A stretch of 64,000 nucleotides of DNA, from the IMG/VR virus record IMGVR_UViG_3300025009_000079; one strand, written 5' to 3'. The notes under the pieces were generated by a model. That model was not told where the DNA came from, did not search any database, and saw nothing but the letters and a program-made list of their open reading frames with translations. The translations under genes and the position numbers were made by a program. This document shows, piece after piece, positions 1 through 48,323 of the stretch (positions within the stretch are counted from its first letter, which is position 1; each line of letters starts with the position of its first letter). Origin of the DNA: an uncultured virus (IMG/VR IMGVR_UViG_3300025009_000079) (taxonomy: Duplodnaviria > Heunggongvirae > Uroviricota > Caudoviricetes).

Positions 1-193
1 CTCCACGGAAGAGTTCCCCCATGCGTCCACGGAAGAGTTCTCCCTTGCCACCACGGAAGAGTTCTCCCTTGCCACCACGAAAGAGTTCCCCCTTGCCTCC
101 ACGGAAGAGTTCTCCCATGCCACCACGGAAGAGTTCTCCCTTGCCACCACGGAAGAGTTCTCCCTTGCCACCACGGAAGAGTTCCCCCTTGCC
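1..193. repeat. 24-bp tandem repeat (ccacggaagagttctcccttgcca), about 8 copies, coding
   Basis: Directly visible, no spacers. Confidence 0.95.
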
Positions 194-303
194 CGTTGAA
201 CAATTATCCTGACCGACGCCTTAATTTCAATCTTGGTGTAATTGTCGAATCGCTCGGGCAGTGAGTCTAATTCACTTTGATTTGTAACTACGATTGTTTT
301 CAC
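1..303 (-). CDS. Octapeptide-repeat (ARENSSVV) beta-solenoid-like phage protein, runs off the window edge
   Basis: Not in the ORF track. GTG at 303 after a G-rich SD; reads MKTIVVTNQSELDSLPERFDNYTKIEIKASVRIIVQRARGNSSVVARENSSVVARENSSVVAWENSSVE. Confidence 0.75.
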   Translation of the reverse strand, partial: MKTIVVTNQSELDSLPERFDNYTKIEIKASVRIIVQRARGNSSVVARENSSVVARENSSVVAWENSSVEARGNSFVVARENSSVVARENSSVDAWGNSSVE

Positions 304-460
304 GATTTCCCCCCCCCTCCACAAAAGTCTTGTACTCCGCAATGATTCTTCTGATCTCTGCCGCCATGGAAGTACCACCCGTTTTCGCTCGTTTCATGAG
401 CCACTTTTTCAGGTCTTTGGGAAGATAAAGTTCCGTTCTTTCCATTGTGTTCTTGCCCAC
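272..460 (-). CDS. Ribbon-helix-helix (Arc/CopG-like) DNA-binding protein
   Basis: RTELYLPKDLKKWL...SMAAEIRRII pattern; SD upstream. Confidence 0.7.
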   Translation of the reverse strand: MGKNTMERTELYLPKDLKKWLMKRAKTGGTSMAAEIRRIIAEYKTFVEGGGNRENNRSYKSK

Positions 461-525
461 ATAATCACCTCCCTTCCTTGTACGGTTGCGTATACGGTAA
501 CATCTGGCAAAAAGAGAGTCAACAA

Positions 526-732
526 CTATTTCCGCTTCTTCCCAAACCTCTCAGCGTCGAACCCATCCCGCCCCTCGTTGACTGCGCGTTGAACCTGGTC
601 CTCGTACAGCCTAAGCTCGCGGTAGGCGCGGTCGTATTCATTCTGCGCTCGAAAGAGGTCTGCCCTTTTGTCTCCCAGATCACGACGCATGTTTTCCAGG
701 CACTTTTGATGCCATTCAATCGGATGCTTCAT
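526..732 (-). CDS. Hypothetical protein (coiled coil)
   Basis: ORF with SD-like purine run in a minus-strand operon. Confidence 0.6.
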   Translation of the reverse strand: MKHPIEWHQKCLENMRRDLGDKRADLFRAQNEYDRAYRELRLYEDQVQRAVNEGRDGFDAERFGKKRK

Positions 733-887
733 TTCTTATCCTTTCCTGATTCTTTCCTTGATCGCCGCAACAACAATATCAATGATCCGATGCGCGTCCG
801 AGTCAATGTAACCAAGCGTGCCTAAGCCATCGCAGATCTTGAGGCACCGTTCGCGTTCAAGGCTACGAACTTCCTTTGCGATATCAA

Positions 888-1187
888 CTAGTTCTCCTCG
901 ATTATGGCAACATTGACAGCCTTCATATTTGGCACACTGTCAATAAGGCTCTTCCGGATGAAGTCACCCGCTCCCTTGGCAAGCTCAATCTCGAAAATCT
1001 TGGCGCTCAGGATGTCGCTTTGAGCCTTCACCTTATCGAGTTTGTCCAGAAGCCATTCCGAATTTTCGTCCCACCCGATTTCGTCCATGCACTCCATGGC
1101 TTCGGGTGCATACTCGCCTTCGTACCGTTCTACTCGCTGTGCGAAAATCACATAAAGTCTCATCGTCGCTCTTTTCATCGCCCCCAT
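888..1187 (-). CDS. Hypothetical protein
   Basis: Globular acidic composition, operon context. Confidence 0.6.
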   Translation of the reverse strand: MGAMKRATMRLYVIFAQRVERYEGEYAPEAMECMDEIGWDENSEWLLDKLDKVKAQSDILSAKIFEIELAKGAGDFIRKSLIDSVPNMKAVNVAIIEEN

Positions 1188-1384
1188 GTGCGCTGAGGCT
1201 TATTCACCCCTCAAGCTCTCCACATAGGATCGTCCAGGCGAGAGCCATGTAGATCCCCCATTTCTGAGCCAATCTCTCAACCTCGTATTGCGGCGGCATG
1301 CCGAAAGGTTGCCGATGAGCCGCACCCTGCCGATAACGAACACTTTTGTTCGCTATTCCACCAGCCCCGCAGGGGGAGCCAACA

Positions 1385-1621
1385 TCACGATTGACCATCC
1401 ATTGCGTGTTTTACGGTTGGGCATAGCCTGTCGGTGTTGTAGTTCCACCATCGCAACAACTTCTCCATCTCTGGTGGCCAATAAAACTGGACGGGACCGA
1501 AGTCTCTAAGCGTCTCAGAAAACCCATCTGGATGATAATAGATGGCGTACCATCGTCCGTTAAAAGTGACGAGGTTGATGGGCTTGTCTTCTCCCCACGA
1601 CCACCCTGGCTTGTTTTTCAT
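1385..1621 (-). CDS. Hypothetical protein
   Basis: Operon context. Confidence 0.5.
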   Translation of the reverse strand: MKNKPGWSWGEDKPINLVTFNGRWYAIYYHPDGFSETLRDFGPVQFYWPPEMEKLLRWWNYNTDRLCPTVKHAMDGQS

Positions 1622-1624
1622 TGA

Positions 1625-1999
1625 CTATCCGCACCGCAAGCAGTGCCCGCAACCCGGACAGGGCCGCTTCACATCATCCAATACCTCACCGCATCTATCA
1701 CACCGCTCGAGTCTTATCTCCGTGTGGCGCTCGCCGTAGTAGGGGTGGCGCCGGTCAAGCTGCGGGTGGGGTACTGTGTAGGGTTTCTGGTCTTCCATGT
1801 CATTCTCCCGACTGGGCGCGCTGGTAACTCGCCTTTGTGCATGACGGCACGTAGCGTTATCTCTAAATATCAATCGTTCAGACGGATCTCCGTTCAATGC
1901 ACAAGCCATCACCATGGCTTCATCTAGGGTTTTTGCGTGGACCGCAATACCCTCGGCCATTAGCCGACCTTTTCTGATCCGGTCGAAATTCCACCGCAT
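1625..1999 (-). CDS. Hypothetical protein with C-terminal zinc ribbon
   Basis: CDRC..CPGCGHCLRC; GGAG SD. Confidence 0.55.
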   Translation of the reverse strand: MRWNFDRIRKGRLMAEGIAVHAKTLDEAMVMACALNGDPSERLIFRDNATCRHAQRRVTSAPSRENDMEDQKPYTVPHPQLDRRHPYYGERHTEIRLERCDRCGEVLDDVKRPCPGCGHCLRCG

Positions 2000-2096
2000 A
2001 TCATCTCCTGCCTAATCTTCGTCATCTTCCTCGAATTGGTCACAATCGCAAGACGGCGCTCCACCCTCAGATTCTAGCCGTCGAGGGCAATGATTT

Positions 2097-2693
2097 TCAC
2101 ACCAGTGCTGTCGTGTGCATGGTTCGTGTTTTTCGTTGACCATCTCGCCCATTCTCATCCTCCCGCCGACTGAGTGCGCCGATAACTCGGCCTGGTGCGC
2201 TCTCGTCCCATCCGATAGACTCATCGCCCATGTGGTGCTTACGATAGGCCATCTGAGTGGCGTTCAGGAGTTGATAGTTGCGCTGTTCGACTTCATGCGC
2301 CACGGCGAGCCACCCTCGTTGCATGGCTGGCTTCAGCTCGTCGAACTTCAAGCGCTGGTAGCACTCGGGGACCACCTCCGCAATTTGGTAGCGGTAGGTT
2401 TCGTACATGGCCGTGGCAACTTCTCGACTCGATTCTTCCGCCGAGCCTATTGTGGGCCACTTGGGACCGACACGAACGCCTTCAACGATCCTGGATTGCT
2501 CAAACCATGCGTCGTATTCGACTTGCGGCATATCTTCAGGCAGTTCGTCCTCGTAAGACCATCCTTTCGGGTCGCAGCATGTTTCCCAATTAAAACGCTT
2601 TTCTCCGCACTCGAGACACTTCACGAGTATGCCGCGCTTTTCCATGATTCGCATGTTTCTGACGAGCTTCCTAAAATTATAGTTCCGAGTCAT
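2097..2693 (-). CDS. Hypothetical protein
   Basis: ORF with GGAGG SD before MTRNYNF; the 3' end may be frameshifted. Confidence 0.5.
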   Translation of the reverse strand: MTRNYNFRKLVRNMRIMEKRGILVKCLECGEKRFNWETCCDPKGWSYEDELPEDMPQVEYDAWFEQSRIVEGVRVGPKWPTIGSAEESSREVATAMYETYRYQIAEVVPECYQRLKFDELKPAMQRGWLAVAHEVEQRNYQLLNATQMAYRKHHMGDESIGWDESAPGRVIGALSRREDENGRDGQRKTRTMHTTALV

Positions 2694-29289: not shown

Positions 29290-30213
29290 TTAAGTTACCT
29301 GGTGCCAGTACAGATGGCGCCATCCAGTTACGCCATTGGCGAACCTCAGATAAATCGACAACTTGAGCATGTAGGTGTCGAAGTCCCAAGTGGTATTGGG
29401 GTCCGGTTTGATGCGCTCGATCCACTTCATGAACTTCTTCATGAGGGACTTGGACGCCATGCCCCAGCTCGCCGTATCGAAGTCGTCCAGGTACGGAAGG
29501 GCCATGATCTCGTAGCGGTCGGCGTGGAAGTTCTTGTCCGAAGCCGCCGTCTGATACCCGGATTGGGTCTTGACAAAGGTCCACGCCGCCTCTTCCTGAG
29601 TCTGCGGCACGATGAGGACCAGATCGTCGGGCATGTTGAACCGCTCCCCGATGTCGTCCCGGAACATCTTCATGGCGAGCCGCGTGGTGGCAATGGACGT
29701 GTTGGTGAGGGGCGAAGTGCCTAGATTGTCGAACCCGCTGGACGTGCTGACGCCCGACTTGGTGGTATGGCTATTGGATGCCAGGGCCACACCCTCCTCC
29801 GACGTGGTGAAGTCGAATGCCGCCGTGGCCGCATACGCAAAGGGGCGCACCTCGTACTTGACTTGGACTCGCCGTATCGATTCCGACAGAAGACTCGCCC
29901 GGTCGGTCAGAACGCCGTACCTCTCGTCGTCCAGGAGCTTTCGCTCGAACTGGAGACCGCCGGCGAACTCCTTGGGCTCGATTTTGGTGTACCATCCAGG
30001 GAACATGGAGAGGTACGAAAGCTGACCGTTGAACCTGGGGACATCCTGAATCCCGGTGATTCCGTAGAAGTCCTCATAGGCACGCTCGGAAGTGATGACA
30101 TCGTAGATTTTATCCTTCACGGACGGGATCTCGTCGTATTTCTGACGAACCACCCGCTGAACGTGTCCCTCGACCAATTTCCGAAACTGGGCACTTGTTA
30201 CAGGGCTACCCAT
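29290..30213 (-). CDS. Major capsid protein (HK97 fold, Mu gpT-like)
   Basis: TSERAYED, EGVALASNSH, LVLIVP, WDFDT...RFANGVTGWR; after scaffold. Confidence 0.85.
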   Translation of the reverse strand: MGSPVTSAQFRKLVEGHVQRVVRQKYDEIPSVKDKIYDVITSERAYEDFYGITGIQDVPRFNGQLSYLSMFPGWYTKIEPKEFAGGLQFERKLLDDERYGVLTDRASLLSESIRRVQVKYEVRPFAYAATAAFDFTTSEEGVALASNSHTTKSGVSTSSGFDNLGTSPLTNTSIATTRLAMKMFRDDIGERFNMPDDLVLIVPQTQEEAAWTFVKTQSGYQTAASDKNFHADRYEIMALPYLDDFDTASWGMASKSLMKKFMKWIERIKPDPNTTWDFDTYMLKLSIYLRFANGVTGWRHLYWHQVT

Positions 30214-31645: not shown

Positions 31646-32542
31646 CTATGCTCCCATGATGTCCGCAACATCCTTGTCGGATAACCCCATCCTCATGGCC
31701 GCTCGCCTGGCATGATCGTCAAGCTTGACCTTTGGGACTTCTTTTGCCTTGGCAGCCATCCCTGACGGGGCACCAAGGGGGGCTCTCGGCGGATCTCCCT
31801 TGAGAGGATTCTTCGGCGTCTCATCCTTTTTCGGTCTTGCGAGTCGTTGCTTCAAGACGTGAGCCTGCGCTGCGTAGTAGTTGGTTTCGGCATCGATAAG
31901 CGGGTTTCCCGTGCGGATCACATTGTACGGGGCTCCGGCCTCGGTTGATAGCTTTACCGCCTCCTCATGCAGGGCAGAATCGTCCGCCTCGGCTCCAAGC
32001 TTGGTGAGCGTCGAAAGATATCCCGTCTCGTATTGCGTTCTTTGGACCGTCTGCTCCTGGACCTTGCGCTGCTCCAGTTGAGCGATGCGCCTCTCGAGCA
32101 GAGCGTCGAACTCTTTGCGGGTCGAGGGGATGTACTCGTCTTCCTCTTCCGCCTCCTGGCCTTGAATCATGCCCGGAGCGGCTTCTTTTTGTTGCAGAAG
32201 GGAAGTCAGGATTTGAAGCGTCTGGTTGGTCTGCTGAATTTGCTGCTCGTAAACCTTGAGAGTACCTTCAAGAGCGGCAACCTTGCGCCCGAGTTGCGAC
32301 CGTTCCTTATTGTCCTTTGGCTTCGGTGGCTCCTCTTGTTCCGCGCGCTCGGCTTCCTTGTCTTCTTGGTCGGTCTCTCCGGTGTCGGCAGGAAGGTCGG
32401 CGGACTCGTCCGATACTTTCTCTTCCCTGTCTACAACGGGTTCGTTTTCAATGAAGGATCTTGCTTCCTCCGCGGCCCGGTGCAGATCGTCAAGACTGAC
32501 GTCTTGCTGCTGGCTGGCATCGTTGGCGTCTTCGGGTGGCAT
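31646..32542 (-). CDS. Scaffolding protein
   Basis: Acidic disordered N-terminus, coiled coil, C-terminal AAMRMGLS helix-turn-helix. Confidence 0.75.
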   Translation of the reverse strand: MPPEDANDASQQQDVSLDDLHRAAEEARSFIENEPVVDREEKVSDESADLPADTGETDQEDKEAERAEQEEPPKPKDNKERSQLGRKVAALEGTLKVYEQQIQQTNQTLQILTSLLQQKEAAPGMIQGQEAEEEDEYIPSTRKEFDALLERRIAQLEQRKVQEQTVQRTQYETGYLSTLTKLGAEADDSALHEEAVKLSTEAGAPYNVIRTGNPLIDAETNYYAAQAHVLKQRLARPKKDETPKNPLKGDPPRAPLGAPSGMAAKAKEVPKVKLDDHARRAAMRMGLSDKDVADIMGA

Positions 32543-35153: not shown

Positions 35154-35344
35154 TTCGCTATGTCCCCGCAATGTGGGCAGACATCAGGGTCAACGACTTG
35201 ATTCAAGCGTATCATTCTTCGGCATCTTCTACATTGAAGGTCCAAAAGATTGCCGTCCCATTTCGGAATGTATCCGCTCGAATCTTCTTCTATTACCTCC
35301 CCGTACAAATCATAAACATCCTTGCTCCCGGAGGTCCTCTCCAT
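35150..35344 (-). CDS. Zinc-ribbon protein
   Basis: CRRC...CPHC; coupled to portal stop. Confidence 0.55.
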   Translation of the reverse strand: MERTSGSKDVYDLYGEVIEEDSSGYIPKWDGNLLDLQCRRCRRMIRLNQVVDPDVCPHCGDIAK

Positions 35345-37362
35345 TACATTCCCTCTCCTGCATTGGCTCTAGCCATAACCTCGGTTTCACTCTGCTGTAT
35401 TCCGCTCTGGTTCGCCGTTGGTGCCTCAAATGTAGCACCTGGTAACGCCGGTCCTCCACCTTGCTGCCCGTTGCCTCCGCCTCCAGGAGCCTGCAACTGA
35501 GGCATAACCTTGGGATTCAAGAGTTTCCTCGACACATTAACAACCTCGTCACCCATGTAGGAAGCGCTGCGCTCAAACAGGTAGTTCAGAAACACCTTGA
35601 ACTGAGGGTCATTGGCATAGAGTTGAGCGTAAGGCGAAAGTGCCTGAATGAATTGGAGAAGGTTGCGAATCTTGGCCTGTTTGCTCTGCTCACCTTCGAT
35701 AGCTTGAGATAATGGCTTGAACCAGTAGTCCCTCGTGGGATCGAAGTGCATGACCTTCTGACCCATGAGTTTGTACCCGGTCTCAGGTTTTGCAAACCGC
35801 CACGTCATTTGCTGAATCATCCAGTAGAGTTGATCGTCGAACGTGTGCTCGAAGGTGAGCGCCTTGAAGTTGGATCTTTGGTTCGATCGGCCCTCGGCGC
35901 CGGCCACGGCCGTAGCAGTGGTAGACGCCCTGCTCGGTACATCCCCCATCGTGGTGGGGAACGTGGCGTCGAACTGTTGCATTTTGGATGAAAGTATCCC
36001 AATTTGATTCAAGGCACCACCGATGTTGTCGGAAATCTTAAACTCGGCTACATCCCCGATTTCCTTGACCATCATGGGATGACCTGGCTCAAAGTAGAGG
36101 GTGTCGTTGTCCTCAAGGCTCAGTTCCTTGGCCTGAAATGTCGGGATGGTAGCCAACATGGTTCGGTCCTGGCTGATATTGAATGTATCATCTATGGCCT
36201 TCTGGAGATCCCTTGCGTGCTTGGCATCCCCGAACCCACCGTCGTTCACGGGGTGGGGGTAGCAAAGGCCACGGATCACCGGGATGTACGGGATATCGTT
36301 GGCGTCGAGATATGGGGTCACATGGAAGGCTATTAGCGTCTGGCTACTGCCTTCGGATAGCGCCAATTCTTTGACTACATGGTGAAGCTCGGCGTCCTCA
36401 AGTGGTTCACCATCGTCGTCAATGCCGGGGCTCACCTTACTCGGAAGCCCGGTCATCTCATCCATCTCGTCAACAATGCACCAATCTTCACCATACCGTT
36501 TCAGAATGTCGAACTTCTTCTCGCCCTTCGGTGGAGCATACTCTTTGTCCTCTTCCTTGTTGAACGTTTCTCGGGCGGTCTCGGTCTCGTCTCCAGTGGC
36601 GATGTCTTCCAGAAGGTCAAGGTTGAAGTATCCGGCTCGATCCTTGTCCCGCTTGAGTTGAGAGAGGGTTTTCTCGGATCTCACGATCACATAGGGCTTC
36701 TGCTGGAGAGAGTAGACGTAGGAATTGTCCGTGAACACGTTACGGGGATCGAGGACTTCGTACTCGAACTGGTCGATAAAAACCTTTTCCCCCTTAATCG
36801 GCTGCTGAATAAGCTCGACTTTCGCAACCTGGGTCTCCGGGTCTTCAATCGGGTTGTCGTAAATATCGACGTCCATCTCTTGGTAGACGTCCTCATATCC
36901 AATGACAGCCTTCCGGCTTTGCTGGTTCCAAAGACACTCGGCGTAGACCTTCCCGTCGAGCCGATTCAAAAGCCTTGCCCTCACAAACTTGAGGTAATGA
37001 AACAGGCTCCTCTGGTTGAGGGTCCGGTTGATAAGCTCCTTTGTGGCATCCGCGGCCCTTAGCGCCTCAAGCGATTCGTCCTGAAGATAGCACTCCACGA
37101 AGTCCCTGGACTGGTAGTAGGTGTCCACGTCCATGCTGAGTTGGGTGAGCATATGAGAAATGAACTCGGGGATATGGATATCGGACATCCAATCGTAGTC
37201 CTTCTCCGACCTCTCGGCATCCAGGAGGGCCAAGTACGCCTCGAAATCATCGAAGTCAACCTGCTGATTTTGCTTACAGGTATCGTACTCGTGCATCATC
37301 GCGGAGCACATGGCACCTTCGATGGTTTCGTCATACTTGCGCTTGGGTGTCTTTTTTGCCAT
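35344..37362 (-). CDS. Portal protein (P22-like podovirus type)
   Basis: 672 aa, VLDPRNVFTD, DLQKAIDDTFN, TATAV; between TerL and scaffold. Confidence 0.85.
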   Translation of the reverse strand: MAKKTPKRKYDETIEGAMCSAMMHEYDTCKQNQQVDFDDFEAYLALLDAERSEKDYDWMSDIHIPEFISHMLTQLSMDVDTYYQSRDFVECYLQDESLEALRAADATKELINRTLNQRSLFHYLKFVRARLLNRLDGKVYAECLWNQQSRKAVIGYEDVYQEMDVDIYDNPIEDPETQVAKVELIQQPIKGEKVFIDQFEYEVLDPRNVFTDNSYVYSLQQKPYVIVRSEKTLSQLKRDKDRAGYFNLDLLEDIATGDETETARETFNKEEDKEYAPPKGEKKFDILKRYGEDWCIVDEMDEMTGLPSKVSPGIDDDGEPLEDAELHHVVKELALSEGSSQTLIAFHVTPYLDANDIPYIPVIRGLCYPHPVNDGGFGDAKHARDLQKAIDDTFNISQDRTMLATIPTFQAKELSLEDNDTLYFEPGHPMMVKEIGDVAEFKISDNIGGALNQIGILSSKMQQFDATFPTTMGDVPSRASTTATAVAGAEGRSNQRSNFKALTFEHTFDDQLYWMIQQMTWRFAKPETGYKLMGQKVMHFDPTRDYWFKPLSQAIEGEQSKQAKIRNLLQFIQALSPYAQLYANDPQFKVFLNYLFERSASYMGDEVVNVSRKLLNPKVMPQLQAPGGGGNGQQGGGPALPGATFEAPTANQSGIQQSETEVMARANAGEGM

Positions 37363-39307: not shown

Positions 39308-42013
39308 TCATCGCTTATCACTTCCGACCGATTTATAATACTGCCGTCCCTCGTGCCTCTCAACCGGGGCATTCGTCTTCCCAGCCTTGAAGTACGGGTT
39401 CTTGAGCAACGCTTCCCACACCATATTGAAATGGCTGTATTTTTGTTGGGGATTATCCTTCGCGTCCTTCAAGGTGGAGTTTCTTGAATCGGCCCACACG
39501 TCCCAAGACCACTTCTTCATGTGCTCCACGGCGTTCTTGCAGGTCGAAAACAGCCACAAAGTGGGGAGTCTTTTGGTGCTCCCGTCCCTGGTAACGAGAT
39601 TATTGAAGGGACGCCCGACCAATCGGCTGTTCTGGAGCCTCATTTTGATCTCATTCCGGCCCACAAGCCCCTTTGTGTCCCATGGGGTCCAGTATCCCCC
39701 GGTCCCATTCCCAGACTTCTTTAGCTCCAGCGATATCCGATTAATATCGTCCAGTAGGGTGATGGTATCCTTCTGAATCGTCCTTGCCTCCGGGTCCAGG
39801 AGGTTGATTTTGAATCTGTGGTCCATGCACCTTGAGGAAAATTCGTCCATGATGTCGAGCGTTGTGAATTTGTCCGGACTCATCCACGCTTCGGTCCATA
39901 TGAACATCTCATTGGTCGGGCTCATGGATGCCGCGCCGCATGCCCAATTCACATGGGGATGGATGTCTATCCCGCGCCCGTGGGTCCAAAACTGAGGGAT
40001 TCCATGAGGGAAATACTCGTTCTCGTCAATCTCGTGGATGCGCGAATCATACATCTTGAAGATTCGGCCGCTTGCCTGCCGGAAGATTCCATATCGCCTT
40101 GTGGCCTCCGTGTCAGGATCATCGTAGGTCAGTTTGCTCTTGATGGCTTCCATGTCGAGAGTTGGGTTGTCGTCGGTAGCGGCTTGCAGGACGGCTATCG
40201 TGGTCGGTTCTTTGGTCTTTTGGACCTGATCCGTCTTGGTATCCTCACCTTGGGTCTTGTAGAAATCGCAGATTGCCGGCGTTCTGATGTAGATAGCCGC
40301 CTGCTCGAAAAGTTCTGAGAAGGTCCAGGTTACTTTTTGGGCAGGAGTTAGGAATATTTGCATCTCACCGTTTTCTGCAATCAGCCGTGGAAGCTGTTCT
40401 TCCCAAAATGCTTCACCGGGCTCTTCATCGCAACTCACGGCGAGCCGCTGAGATCCAGCACCAGACTGGACGTCTTGGCTATACGACACAAATTCAACCA
40501 CTATGTCGGGTCCATCGTAAGCTACCGCTTTATCACCCAATCCAAAAACTTCACCCTTGTTAGGGTTCGTTATGATGATTGCCTTTGTTCTGGCCGTAAT
40601 GTCCCTCTTTAACAGAAATGGAGGCAACCATTTTTTTAGCTCGGGATAGGTCCGATTTCTGATTTCTGCACTCTCTGCACCCGACCCCTCTTTATCCTCT
40701 GGTAGATTTTCAGACGCCATCCTGAACGTTGTGGTCCCGCGCTTGTGAATGTAGATCGGCTCTCCGCACTCCGGGCACATCATATCTTTCGGGAAGGCTA
40801 TCTTTTTCGGCATAACATTTTGGTTTTTTGTCCAAAAACAATCTCCTGGTCTCACGTTGAAGTGGTGAAATCCAGGCCACGGAGCCGGTCTTGTAAACTC
40901 ATGACCGTTCTTGCACTCGAAAAACAGAACATTCTTCCTCGGGCACGGATGACTTCCAAGGAATTTCAAGACATTGCTGTATGCCATATAGCAGGACTTG
41001 CCGCTGTTGTGATGAATTACGCCGTTGTGGATGTAGTTGTGAAGCCCCGGAACCTCAAAATCCCATTTGACTCCTTCGCCTACTTTGACTATTGTGGAAA
41101 CCAAGGCGAACGAGGAAGGAGTTGATAATGCGAGTGAGTAAGGGTGGCTTGATCGGTCGCCCCCCCAAAGATTGGCCGATTGAGGAAATACGACGCCACG
41201 TGGAAGACCTTGGCTGGACCCACAGGGCGACAGGCAAGAAGCTTGGAGTGAACGAGAAGTATGTCTCGACCCTCTGCAAGAGGCACGGGATACAGTCTCA
41301 GCGCAGAGGTCCGAGAAGTGGACCTGGGCACCCCGATTGGGAAGGAGGTCTTTCGATAAGAAAGGGGTACGCCTATGTGTGGTTCCCGGAGCACCCGTTC
41401 TCAACCAAGGGAGGGTATGTTCTTCGGTCTCATTTGGTGATGGAAGACAAGTTGGAGAGATATCTTCAGCCTGGTGAAGTGGTCCACCACATGAACAACG
41501 ACACTCTAGATGATGACCCTGACAACCTCTTTCTGTTCCGGTCGAATGGACTTCATTTGAAGTATACACGGACTGGGAAAATTCCGAATTGGACTGAGGA
41601 CGGCATAGCGCGTATCCGGGCCGCAACTCAGAGACGCGAAGCCAACCGGAAGGCGTTAAAACAATGTGACCAGGAGCAGCAAGGAACGAACTCCCGTCCC
41701 GAAGACTAACCTTGTAGATATCATCCATTCCCTTTGAGAATGGCTCGTTCGCCTTGGCAACAACAACTTTCTCTCCATCCCACGCCTCAACGTGGAACGA
41801 TCCGGTTATTGTCTGGATCTCTTTAGATTCACCAGTAACCGGGTCAAAAATCTTACTCCCCTCGGCCAAGCATTGGTTTCCACAAAAAAGGCATACCCTG
41901 TCGTATTTGTATGGCAAAAGTAACGCCTGCCTCATGAGCCAAGTCATCTTGTAGCTCAAGAAAACCGAGAAGTCGTTAAGCTGTTTTACGGCTAGATCGT
42001 TGTCACTACTCAC
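39308..42013 (-). CDS. terL: Terminase large subunit with intein in Walker A (612 aa after splicing)
   Basis: GNQ|SGKS Walker A, VSCDEEP Walker B, FLTP, DNPTL, RGID nuclease motif. Confidence 0.92.
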   Translation of the reverse strand: MSSDNDLAVKQLNDFSVFLSYKMTWLMRQALLLPYKYDRVCLFCGNQCLAEGSKIFDPVTGESKEIQTITGSFHVEAWDGEKVVVAKANEPFSKGMDDIYKVSLRDGSSFLAAPGHIVLTPSGWLRVSELRPGYALCRPQSNSEFSQSVYTSNEVHSTGTERGCQGHHLECRCSCGGPLHQAEDISPTCLPSPNETEEHTLPWLRTGAPGTTHRRTPFLSKDLLPNRGAQVHFSDLCAETVSRASCRGSRHTSRSLQASCLSPCGSSQGLPRGVVFPQSANLWGGDRSSHPYSLALSTPSSFALVSTIVKVGEGVKWDFEVPGLHNYIHNGVIHHNSGKSCYMAYSNVLKFLGSHPCPRKNVLFFECKNGHEFTRPAPWPGFHHFNVRPGDCFWTKNQNVMPKKIAFPKDMMCPECGEPIYIHKRGTTTFRMASENLPEDKEGSGAESAEIRNRTYPELKKWLPPFLLKRDITARTKAIIITNPNKGEVFGLGDKAVAYDGPDIVVEFVSYSQDVQSGAGSQRLAVSCDEEPGEAFWEEQLPRLIAENGEMQIFLTPAQKVTWTFSELFEQAAIYIRTPAICDFYKTQGEDTKTDQVQKTKEPTTIAVLQAATDDNPTLDMEAIKSKLTYDDPDTEATRRYGIFRQASGRIFKMYDSRIHEIDENEYFPHGIPQFWTHGRGIDIHPHVNWACGAASMSPTNEMFIWTEAWMSPDKFTTLDIMDEFSSRCMDHRFKINLLDPEARTIQKDTITLLDDINRISLELKKSGNGTGGYWTPWDTKGLVGRNEIKMRLQNSRLVGRPFNNLVTRDGSTKRLPTLWLFSTCKNAVEHMKKWSWDVWADSRNSTLKDAKDNPQQKYSHFNMVWEALLKNPYFKAGKTNAPVERHEGRQYYKSVGSDKR
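41067..41095 (+). promoter_or_regulatory. Sigma70-like promoter for the antisense HNH gene
   Basis: TTGACT-17 bp-TATTGT. Confidence 0.6.
41128..41709 (+). CDS. HTH-HNH endonuclease nested antisense inside the TerL intein
   Basis: AAGGAG SD 6 nt before ATG; GHPDWEGG, GYVLRSHLVME, EVVHHMNNDTLDDDPDNL. Confidence 0.88.
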   Translation: MRVSKGGLIGRPPKDWPIEEIRRHVEDLGWTHRATGKKLGVNEKYVSTLCKRHGIQSQRRGPRSGPGHPDWEGGLSIRKGYAYVWFPEHPFSTKGGYVLRSHLVMEDKLERYLQPGEVVHHMNNDTLDDDPDNLFLFRSNGLHLKYTRTGKIPNWTEDGIARIRAATQRREANRKALKQCDQEQQGTNSRPED

Positions 42014-47012: not shown

Positions 47013-47399
47013 TGGCCCGGCTTTCTTGCGCGCCCTGCCGACCGAAACGCGCCGACATCGAGAGCACTGATAGAGGCCGCGACTATGATACGCCCCGGTA
47101 TCAAGCCGAGACACGAAGTCGAAGAGATGAAACCATTTGCAGTCGAAAAAAACGCAAAGCCACCCCACGATTAGCCCCCTTCCTGCTTGGCTCTCCCCTG
47201 CATCGGGCTCCGGGGCCAGAAACCGGGAAAGGAGGGGATCAAAACCCGACTTTGACGGCCCGCTGGAGCCCTTAGCAAAAGGAAGCACGAACAACGCACA
47301 CTTGGCAAATACCCACATTTTCAGTTTGTGTCAAGGGCATGGATTGATGTATCCTGTGAATGGATTGACGGCAACCGCGCAAAAGAGGGGAATAAGAGC

Positions 47400-48323
47400 A
47401 TGAAGAAGGGTCTACCGCAAGACTACCACGAAGAATTGTTATCCCGCCAAGGCTTCGATAAACTCGGAGTATCCATCTACCGCAACTCAATCAAGGAACA
47501 TGAACGATTCGTCCCACCCGAAGACACGCGAGAAGAACAAATCCGTTCATGCCTTTGGCTCGTGCATTCCATGGCGGGCAAGTTTCTGGGCCGAGGCGTG
47601 GATTATGACGACCTAGTCTCGAGCGGCAACGAGGGACTGGTTTTCGCTACTACGAAGTTCAATCCGGTAGCCTACCCGGGAGTGAAGTTCGGCAGCTACG
47701 CGGTCTGGTGGATACGACAGCGCATGATCCAGGAGATCCACTATCGGAGTCGAACAATCAAAATTCCAACCAGGATCTACGAGGATTACCGCAAAATCAG
47801 GAATGCTGCCAGAGTCCACAGCCTCAGTCTTACCGACCCGTCCGATGCCGCCAAACTCCAAGAAGAATCCGGACTGTCGACCGACCGCATAGCCAAGGTG
47901 ATTGAACACTATGAGATCCAATGCTTGAGCCTGGACCACCCTCTCCACTTCGACCGTGGAGATAAGGGCGACAGTGACGCCTGCCTGGTTGACGGAATCC
48001 CAAGTGAAGCGCCCAGTCAAGAGGACCTATACCAAACCTACGAAGTTCACCAGCGGCTCGACTCCCTCATGGGTCGCTTGTCTCCCAGGGAGCGCGACAT
48101 CATCGAGCGTCGATGGGGATGTAACGGATATGGAGGCGAACCCCAAACCATGGGGGAATGCGCCGAGGCTCACGGCAACATATCCAGGCAGCGCGTCCAG
48201 CAGCTCGAAACCAGGGCCATGGGGAAGCTTCGGAGGGCGGCCGGCACCTCGGTTAAAATCGGCGCACGGAAAGACCCGGTACGCCGTACCAATCGCATGA
48301 AGAAGGAGGAATTACATGACTGA
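47400..48323 (+). CDS. Phage-encoded sigma70-family (RpoD/RpoS-like) factor
   Basis: Region 2 DLVSSGNEGL...KFGSYAVWWIRQ; region 3 LSLD; region 4 LSPRERDII...ISRQRVQQLETRAMGKLR. Confidence 0.93.
   Translation: MKKGLPQDYHEELLSRQGFDKLGVSIYRNSIKEHERFVPPEDTREEQIRSCLWLVHSMAGKFLGRGVDYDDLVSSGNEGLVFATTKFNPVAYPGVKFGSYAVWWIRQRMIQEIHYRSRTIKIPTRIYEDYRKIRNAARVHSLSLTDPSDAAKLQEESGLSTDRIAKVIEHYEIQCLSLDHPLHFDRGDKGDSDACLVDGIPSEAPSQEDLYQTYEVHQRLDSLMGRLSPRERDIIERRWGCNGYGGEPQTMGECAEAHGNISRQRVQQLETRAMGKLRRAAGTSVKIGARKDPVRRTNRMKKEELHD

Follow-up and report, generated by a model that had tools for sequence, protein, structure and literature searches.

A terminase intein with a putative HNH homing endonuclease gene on its opposite strand

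We studied a 64,000-nucleotide (nt) stretch of DNA from an uncultured virus of the class Caudoviricetes (IMG/VR record IMGVR_UViG_3300025009_000079; hereafter the window), in which the predicted gene for the terminase large subunit (terL, minus strand) is split in its Walker A loop by an intein. The central part of this intein is the reverse complement of a complete HNH endonuclease-like gene, read from the plus strand (Table 1). The same arrangement, always in one register, recurs in 133 of 135 distinct loci, and the positions of nucleotide substitutions indicate that the two splicing lobes are selected as intein protein and the centre as HNH protein. We read this as a composite selfish element, to which we give a probability of about 80%: a class-1 mini-intein in the Walker A motif of TerL would carry an antisense, independently translated helix-turn-helix (HTH)-HNH homing endonuclease.

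An intein and an HNH gene on opposite strands

The minus-strand protein reads ...CLFCGNQ / C-LAEGSKIFDPV ... NGVIHHN / SGKSCYMAY across the two intein junctions, with the codon of Cys1 at 41870-41872, that of the terminal Asn289 (VIHHN) at 41006-41008 and that of Ser+1 (SGKS) at 41003-41005. The class-1 splicing residues are complete in the window copy (C1, H69 in block B, D271 in block F, H288-N289 and S+1), and C1, K47, H69, D271 and N289 are invariant across 71 intein-frame sequences (alignment A4). In the AlphaFold2 model built with this alignment, the N- and C-terminal lobes form confidently predicted beta strands and the stretch between them, apart from a single helix of four residues (95-98), has essentially no secondary structure; the intein-frame translation has no PHROG match either. 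The model matched 26 PDB entries at E<=1e-3 with Foldseek, 25 of them inteins and the other a bacterial intein-like (BIL) HINT domain. Of these, the Mtu RecA splicing domain (2imz_B) had the best target TM-score (0.87, root-mean-square deviation (rmsd) 2.3 Å), and the Ssp DnaB mini-intein (6frg) matched with E 4.4e-8. The Pfam family Intein_splicing scored 33.5 bits on the 289-amino acid (aa) piece (curated cut-off 35.8); it was found at E<=1e-4 in 37 of 59 complete host open reading frames (ORFs) of relatives, a few of which exceed the cut-off. Fold model, PDB matches and invariant residues together point to a mini-intein of ~130 folded residues with an unstructured insert of ~160 residues.

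The plus-strand ORF, listed as 41092..41709 (205 aa from TTG), contains a 193-aa gene beginning at ATG 41128, with a Shine-Dalgarno-like AAGGAG (41116-41121) 6 nt ahead of it. It matched phrog_10730 'HNH endonuclease' (E 3.8e-20) and five further HNH families of PHROGs, and scored 23.2 bits against Pfam HNH_3 (curated cut-off 24.8). We found 27 relatives in protein databases at E<=1e-5, for 24 of which, the window's protein among them, PF13392 is precomputed. A tblastn search of phage records matched 27, the best eight being Pectobacterium and Dickeya phages (36% identity over 73% of the query, E 2e-14 to 5e-13). Invariant columns of a 26-sequence alignment of the family (A1) include R59, G61, P62, S64, G65, H68, W71, G74, E117, H120, H121, N140 and H143, so that the motifs GHPDWEGG and EVVHH...N...H fall on invariant positions (H68, W71, G74, H120, H121, N140, H143); N133 is conserved in >=90% of the sequences. 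The AlphaFold2 model of the protein, made with A1, has a mean pLDDT (predicted local distance difference test) of 83. Among 48,161 PDB representatives, the best match to its HNH core in VIA-align was I-HmuI (1u3e_M; Z 6.8, rmsd 2.7 Å, 70 residues, spanning model residues 73-150), and its N-terminal domain resembles HTH DNA-binding domains (Z 5-6). These matches indicate that the plus-strand ORF is a real HNH endonuclease gene, the nuclease activity of its product being predicted.

The gene spans intein residues 55-249, with the HNH core facing the linker and the C-terminal helix facing the N-lobe; its tail (residues ~155-193) overlaps intein residues 55-93, including His69 of block B. Codon position 1 of the HNH frame faces host position 1 and its position 3 faces host position 2, so the two frames do not share wobble positions. 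An initial sequence-only reading, made from the window's letters and ORFs, had described this anatomy: an intein at 41006..41872 splitting GNQ|SGKS with intact splicing residues, a centre devoid of recognisable motifs, and a complete gene opposite it with an HTH, the GHPDWEGG motif and an HNH_3-type core, the tail of which overlaps block B and over which both frames are open. Junctions, alignments, models and profile searches on both strands bear out each of these elements.

The assignment of the host gene to TerL depends on profile-profile comparison and gene context, since the window's own extein had no terminase match in Pfam or PHROGs and the PDB sequence-profile search with the extein profile gave nothing below E 0.16. 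The terL region also had no match in a distant-mode blastn search against 50,697 phage records. A profile of the window's C-extein and its relatives (A2) aligned in hhalign with one of C-exteins having Pfam Terminase_6N/6C (A3) over 284 columns, including the Walker B region (DEEP), with a probability of 97.8% and E 9.4e-13. Downstream on the same strand lie genes with weak PHROG matches to portal (35344-37362, E 8.3e-05), peptidase (31646-32542, E 1.4e-05) and major head protein (29290-30213, E 2.3e-07). Terminase_6N and/or 6C were found at E<=1e-4 in 25 of the 59 complete host ORFs of related loci, whereas 9 of the 59 matched no Pfam family at that threshold. The profile match and the head-packaging context thus identify the window's host gene as a predicted terminase large subunit. 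Just past Walker A (40700-40990, C-extein residues ~5-105), Cys-rich stretches (CPRKNVLFFEC..., ...MMCPECGEP...) resemble a zinc-ribbon insertion, which may be why a direct terminase profile match is missing.

Register, selection and variation across the family

Searching with A1 as profile found at least 579 relatives in IMG/VR (80 used), 90 in Joint Genome Institute (JGI) metagenomes (80 used) and four in contigs of metagenome-assembled genomes (MAGs). Once identical HNH-match DNA and minus-strand matches had been dropped, 135 distinct loci remained, one of them (L012) being the window's own genome in IMG/VR. The four MAG contigs are short (2.4-3.5 kb) and were binned as Nanoarchaeota, Clostridia, Altiarchaeales and Pirellulales; they resemble fragments of phage terL, for which the taxon of the bin is not necessarily that of the host.

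No stop interrupts the host frame anywhere along the HNH match in 133 of the 135 loci, and the register is the same in every one; the host ORFs are typically of 750-900 aa. Of the two exceptions, one (L165) has a match that begins at the contig end and is open in this register as far as the sequence reaches, and the other (L154) is a free-standing member of the HNH family. For the window's HNH gene, synonymous-codon shuffles contained on average 6.84 antisense stops in the host register and none of 500 was stop-free; the Poisson probability of zero stops is ~1e-3, close to the 1 in 1000 or less that had been estimated at the outset. Over the 133 loci, no stop was observed in the host register versus 765.9 expected (500 shuffles per locus), and two control antisense registers had 755 observed versus 755 expected and 1282 versus 1118. 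These counts support both frames being kept open by selection. The GC skew of the window also turns positive over 41000-41700, inside a gene block of otherwise negative skew.

The two frames differ in what is conserved. In 14 disjoint, gapless intein pairs of 91-99% nucleotide identity, not all of them independent, substitutions at host codon positions 1/2/3 numbered 24/5/126 in the N-lobe before the HNH stop (2681 sites), 44/201/24 in the linker opposite the HNH core (6251 sites), 6/23/17 in the N-lobe opposite the HNH tail (1567 sites) and 16/10/63 past the HNH start, including the C-lobe (2047 sites). In the linker, 201 of 269 substitutions thus fall on host position 2, which is the wobble position of the HNH gene, and substitutions are sparsest, with a mixed pattern, where the N-lobe faces the HNH tail. 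Over the whole overlap, changes were 212 synonymous versus 103 non-synonymous in the HNH frame and 40 versus 275 in the host frame. The positions of the substitutions in each region and these counts indicate a switch of regime along the intein: the splicing lobes are selected as intein protein and the centre as HNH protein, the host frame there being merely kept open. Both the family-wide openness of the two frames and a selection confined, in the centre, to the HNH frame agree with what the sequence-only reading had led us to expect of homologues.

The intein lies at two adjacent sites. Among 134 in-register loci, 75 have it at the window's site, N[RQ]|C...HN|[ST]GK, and 40 have it three codons further on, GK|C...HN|[TS]; for the remaining 19 the site could not be assigned, mostly owing to contig truncation. 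On quick maximum-likelihood trees of 85 loci the site label needs three changes on the HNH tree and three on the HINT tree, each against ~23 in shuffles, and pairwise identities of the HNH and HINT parts are correlated (Spearman 0.53). One locus (L006) has an intein-less allele, its TerL being 75% identical to that of the window and reading GNQ|AGKS with no insert.

Sampling by the splicing domain instead of the nuclease, with an alignment of 13 N-lobes (A5), gave 66 distinct loci. An antisense HNH gene was present in 59 of them; four have mini-inteins of 132-167 aa without an HNH match at E<=1e-5, two have mini-inteins with just the HNH tail opposite the N-lobe, and one has another mini-intein. 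Two IMG/VR contigs, in each of which the intein begins at position 2501, are identical over all 708 aligned nt and differ by one in-frame gap of 522 nt that removes the HNH core, leaving inteins of 136 aa (L181) and 310 aa (L182). The retained HNH tail argues for a deletion rather than an insertion, and L181 would represent a very recent loss of HNH that left a 136-aa mini-intein. Ten further pairs of loci are consistent with allele replacement, with C-exteins 84-87% identical and HNH and HINT parts only 53-59% identical.

Free-standing relatives also exist. L154 (1..2159) encodes a 194-aa member of the HNH family (1541..2125, plus) divergently upstream of an intein-less terL (1..1557, minus) with an uninterrupted GGTRSGKT. 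Opposite this HNH gene an open frame of 203 aa runs in another register (HNH position 3 facing position 1), probably by chance in a GC-rich gene. Another free-standing relative (MW202481) lies among structural genes.

Cultured phages carry the element too. Pectobacterium phage Sabo (PQ008974 37606-39870, L176) has a continuous 754-aa ORF (...GFG|CVHP...HIHHN|TGKS) with a 232-aa antisense HNH ORF, and Pseudoalteromonas phage PHS3 (KX912252 17336-19462, L178) a continuous 708-aa ORF (...GAG|CVHP...AVHHN|SGKS). Both share the family register, in which neither has an antisense stop; the other registers contain 11-14. In cultured phages the GenBank annotation overlooks one side of the overlap, either the HNH gene or the N-terminal half of terL: the Sabo record has just a 'hypothetical protein' there, the HNH ORF being unannotated, and in the PHS3 record the HNH gene is present while the terL ORF is annotated over no more than its C-terminal 391 aa. 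Such cultured carriers make expression timing, splicing and homing directly testable.

The window's stretch occurs in groundwater metagenome runs, and a search of sequencing runs listed no RNA run containing it. A contig from run X1, possibly the source sample itself, agrees with the window throughout 40500-41996. Contigs from X5/X6, which are from another sample and study and may be the same data set deposited twice, bridge 41005/6 and 41128 (contig 40839-41257), 41709 (41406-41732) and 41872/3 (41703-41996).

Some host terL ORFs of the family are longer (1090-1255 aa) and have a second intein downstream (L099 1108-4377, L067 452-3976, L058 850-4614); L099 has two Intein_splicing stretches and L067 a LAGLIDADG_3 match near residue 1023. 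In L199, a P-loop mini-intein is followed downstream by a second intein-like start. At the very start of the window's terL, a 38-nt stretch (41967-42012) shows a depth spike in four of four runs (in X1, 132 versus ~30). It also occurs in another contig of 10-11 kb that diverges upstream of 42012 (loose ends, one consensus), and could belong to a relative with a different upstream region or be a repeated regulatory element.

Table 1 Features of the terL-intein-HNH locus in the window.
Feature	Position	Strand	Basis or remark
terL precursor ORF	39308..42013	minus	901 aa from GTG (predicted start), open throughout
C-extein, 565 aa, begins SGKS (second Walker A half)	39308..41005	minus	sequence reading
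Class-1 intein, 289 aa, Cys1 ... His288-Asn289, then Ser+1	41006..41872	minus	motifs, alignment, AlphaFold2
Intein C-lobe, residues 254-289, blocks F and G, VWDFEV...NYIHNGVIHHN	41006..41113	minus	pLDDT 87-98, beta strands
Read-through linker, intein residues 94-253, antisense of HNH core	41114..41593	minus	pLDDT 40-51, no predicted fold
Intein N-lobe, residues 1-93, blocks A and B, His69	41594..41872	minus	pLDDT 95-98, beta strands
N-extein, C-terminal end ...CLFCGNQ (first Walker A half)	41873..42013	minus	sequence reading
Sigma-70-like site TTGACT-17-TATTGT upstream of HNH gene	41067..41095	plus	weak: 1 versus 0.9 expected in shuffles
HNH homing-endonuclease-like gene, 193 aa from ATG 41128	41128..41709	plus	PHROG, Pfam, alignment, AlphaFold2
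N-terminal HTH of HNH protein, residues 18-52	41179-41283	plus	AlphaFold2 (three-helix domain), structural matches
HNH core, residues 75-148	41350-41571	plus	AlphaFold2, pLDDT ~86-98
Long C-terminal helix of HNH protein, residues 157-186, opposite intein N-lobe	41596-41685	plus	AlphaFold2
Terminator-like hairpin ~90 nt past HNH stop	41799..41819	plus	weak: 3 in region versus 1.9 expected

A putative two-strand homing element and its alternatives

The reading as a composite selfish element builds on observed anatomy, selection in each frame, a register fixed across the family, modular loss of HNH and intein-less alleles. A mini-intein of ~130 folded residues would have inserted between GNQ and SGKS of the Walker A loop, with an HTH and HNH_3/I-HmuI-like gene nested antisense where inteins normally hold an in-frame endonuclease. 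The ribosome translating terL would read through the reverse complement of the HNH gene, yielding a disordered linker of ~160 residues that would need only freedom from stops. Protein splicing would discard this linker together with the intein and produce intact TerL, as suggested by the conserved splicing residues, the fold and an essential host gene. The nuclease would be translated from a separate plus-strand message, by means of the Shine-Dalgarno site ahead of its start. Its target would be the P-loop codons of terL alleles that lack the intein, and repair after the cut would copy the whole unit of intein and HNH; family membership, the pattern of presence and absence, and allele replacement are consistent with such homing. 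The forms found correspond to the stages expected of a homing cycle, namely a free-standing gene next to terL, the complete element, HNH-less mini-inteins and an empty allele.

Several points weigh against this reading. Transcription, timing, splicing and cleavage specificity are what we infer rather than observe. A stop-free host frame is expected of any insert in an essential gene and proves that read-through is needed, not that splicing occurs. Both profile scores of the window, for Intein_splicing and for HNH_3, are just below their curated cut-offs. The Z of 6.8 for I-HmuI is within the range where a match may reflect common arrangement alone, and in Foldseek the HNH model matched nothing in the PDB at E<=1e-3 (1u3e_M ranked 11, E 0.46), for which reason the structural support for the HNH protein is moderate. 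The window's HNH protein has a best identity of 51% among the loci and no close DNA relative. The 14 pairs behind the substitution counts come in many cases from one clade (CLAPEQEIYDPV) and are to that extent not independent. No pair among the 85 loci combines HNH identity above 80% with extein identity below 60%, so that recent horizontal homing, in the form of near-identical HNH genes in divergent exteins, is not directly seen.

A strict 5-mer Shine-Dalgarno sequence precedes a candidate start in 59 of 128 loci versus 3.9% of internal start-like codons, an indicative comparison because one rate is per locus and the other per codon; the other 69 loci are without it. Neither the sigma-70-like site nor the terminator-like hairpin of the window exceeds shuffle expectation. 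A 331-aa ORF at 47328-48323 (plus) matches phrog_351 'RNA polymerase sigma factor' (E 2.9e-48); with a sigma factor of the phage's own, scans for host sigma-70 promoters may not fit its middle and late genes.

Whether the antisense layout is a selected design rather than a frozen accident is a separate matter, and we consider the former doubtful, though conceivable. A separate promoter and ribosome site would then let the nuclease be produced independently in time, for instance early in co-infection, with terL expressed late, and convergent transcription or the Cys/Ser/Arg-rich linker could make TerL maturation conditional. If true, the single register common to the window and the Pectobacterium and Pseudoalteromonas phages would mark one old, very successful and overlooked class of two-strand homing elements.

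Among other explanations of the locus, the one that survives best, improbable as it is, takes the HNH protein for a domesticated accessory nuclease of packaging, retained inside terL because it works with the terminase and not a homing enzyme at all. HNH genes adjoining terminase genes are common in phages according to the accessible part of PMC3592412, the free-standing relative in L154 directly adjoins terL, and the HNH gene is under purifying selection. However, HNH is dispensable, as L181 lacks it and is otherwise identical to L182, and close relatives include both HNH-less mini-inteins and intein-less alleles. The combination of HTH and HNH_3 core, with I-HmuI as best structural match, is also the build of a homing endonuclease, and in the ten allele-replacement pairs HNH co-varies with the intein and not with the extein.

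Somewhat less probable still is that the antisense ORF is a silent relic, left by a once free-standing HNH gene that entered a mini-intein and has since lost its expression, the terL frame alone being of consequence. The deletion derivatives do show HNH loss under way in some lineages, but a relic would gather stops and non-synonymous changes, yet the HNH frame is intact in 133 loci down to ~36% identity with its invariant catalytic-region residues retained, and both the excess of substitutions on its wobble position (201/269) and the 212 synonymous versus 103 non-synonymous changes contradict such decay.

We regard as very improbable a fractured gene, in which the halves of a split intein would be made as two polypeptides and joined in trans. 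Split-intein halves with a free-standing endonuclease gene between them are indeed described (accessible text of PMC2677866), but the complete lack of host-frame stops in 133 loci, versus ~766 expected, would be needless if the halves were translated separately, and the host ORFs are continuous in the window (901 aa), PHS3 (708 aa) and Sabo (754 aa). An inverted segment misassembled at the HNH borders, in favour of which we found nothing beyond the metagenomic origin of the window's DNA, has a negligible probability, since the X5/X6 contigs cross both intein junctions and both HNH borders without joints or indels and the same layout recurs in 132 further distinct loci as well as in cultured-phage genomes from GenBank.

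Relation to known inteins and hidden endonucleases

The dual-strand element proposed by the sequence-only reading stands in its structural and evolutionary parts, with a real P-loop intein, a centre antisense to an HNH gene under selection and a linker predicted to be disordered; the lack of precedent that it implied does not. The accessible text of a preprint (bioRxiv 10.1101/2025.01.02.630785) describes anti-sense LAGLIDADG and VSR-like endonucleases in inteins of actinobacteriophages, some of them in terminase large subunits, and cites Gorbalenya 1998 and Gogarten 2002 for anti-sense LAGLIDADG genes in the Synechocystis DnaX and a Chloroflexus SpoVR-like protein. According to that text, in-frame translation of the antisense-endonuclease regions has no recognisable structure, and such inteins are probably under-annotated because annotation pipelines miss overlaps. 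The element studied here resembles these in that a separate opposite-strand ORF replaces the in-frame domain, the intein frame is open and the antisense translation is structureless. It differs in its nuclease, which is of the HNH_3/I-HmuI-like type with an N-terminal HTH. The accessible text of the preprint lists HNH as in-frame only, and the window's ORF, being HNH, falls outside the LAGLIDADG and VSR-like sub-types described there. It also differs from the inteins described there in the extent of its family, with at least 579 stretches in IMG/VR, two adjacent P-loop sites and one fixed register. A full-text literature search, beyond whose reach were the supplementary tables of this preprint, turned up no account of an HNH gene lying antisense within an intein; PMC8966425, PMC6669764, PMC6293099 and PMC10694778, checked as possible precedents, proved unrelated. 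Within the literature searched, solely the HNH type, the family size and the fixed register appear to be undescribed.

Endonucleases hidden out of frame on the same strand are described, in the accessible texts of their sources, for a ShiLan-domain HNH in a phage methylase (PMC11855218), an endonuclease VII-like ORF in actinophage inteins (bioRxiv 10.1101/2025.01.02.630785) and a cyanobacterial dnaX intein (bioRxiv 10.64898/2026.09.14.751524). They share with our family a host frame that is stop-free across the overlapping ORF and a sporadic distribution like that of homing elements. The window's ORF, unlike these, is antisense and has its own Shine-Dalgarno site, and the ShiLan case, as described in that text, is not an intein. 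Inteins that contain an HNH_3-type nuclease in frame likewise combine a HINT splicing domain with such a nuclease in a phage gene, but theirs is part of the intein polypeptide and released by splicing, whereas here it would be a separate opposite-strand protein. Fractured genes (PMC2677866, as far as its accessible text describes them) also place an endonuclease gene that has a start of its own between the N- and C-terminal parts of an intein; the host gene in our family is instead unbroken, with no stop in 133 of 133 loci.

The HNH homing endonuclease I-HmuI is carried by a group I intron of a Bacillus phage and not by an intein. Its structure (PDB 1u3e) combines an HNH core with a helix-turn-helix DNA-binding module, as does the HNH protein model, in which the HTH is N-terminal and the identity to I-HmuI is ~20%. 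The present family would bring a third type of nuclease into the rare class of inteins with an opposite-strand homing enzyme, and would be much the largest family in that class to date. It also offers an unusually clean case of the same DNA selected for its amino acids on one strand and only for 'no stop' on the other, with the switch at the domain borders.

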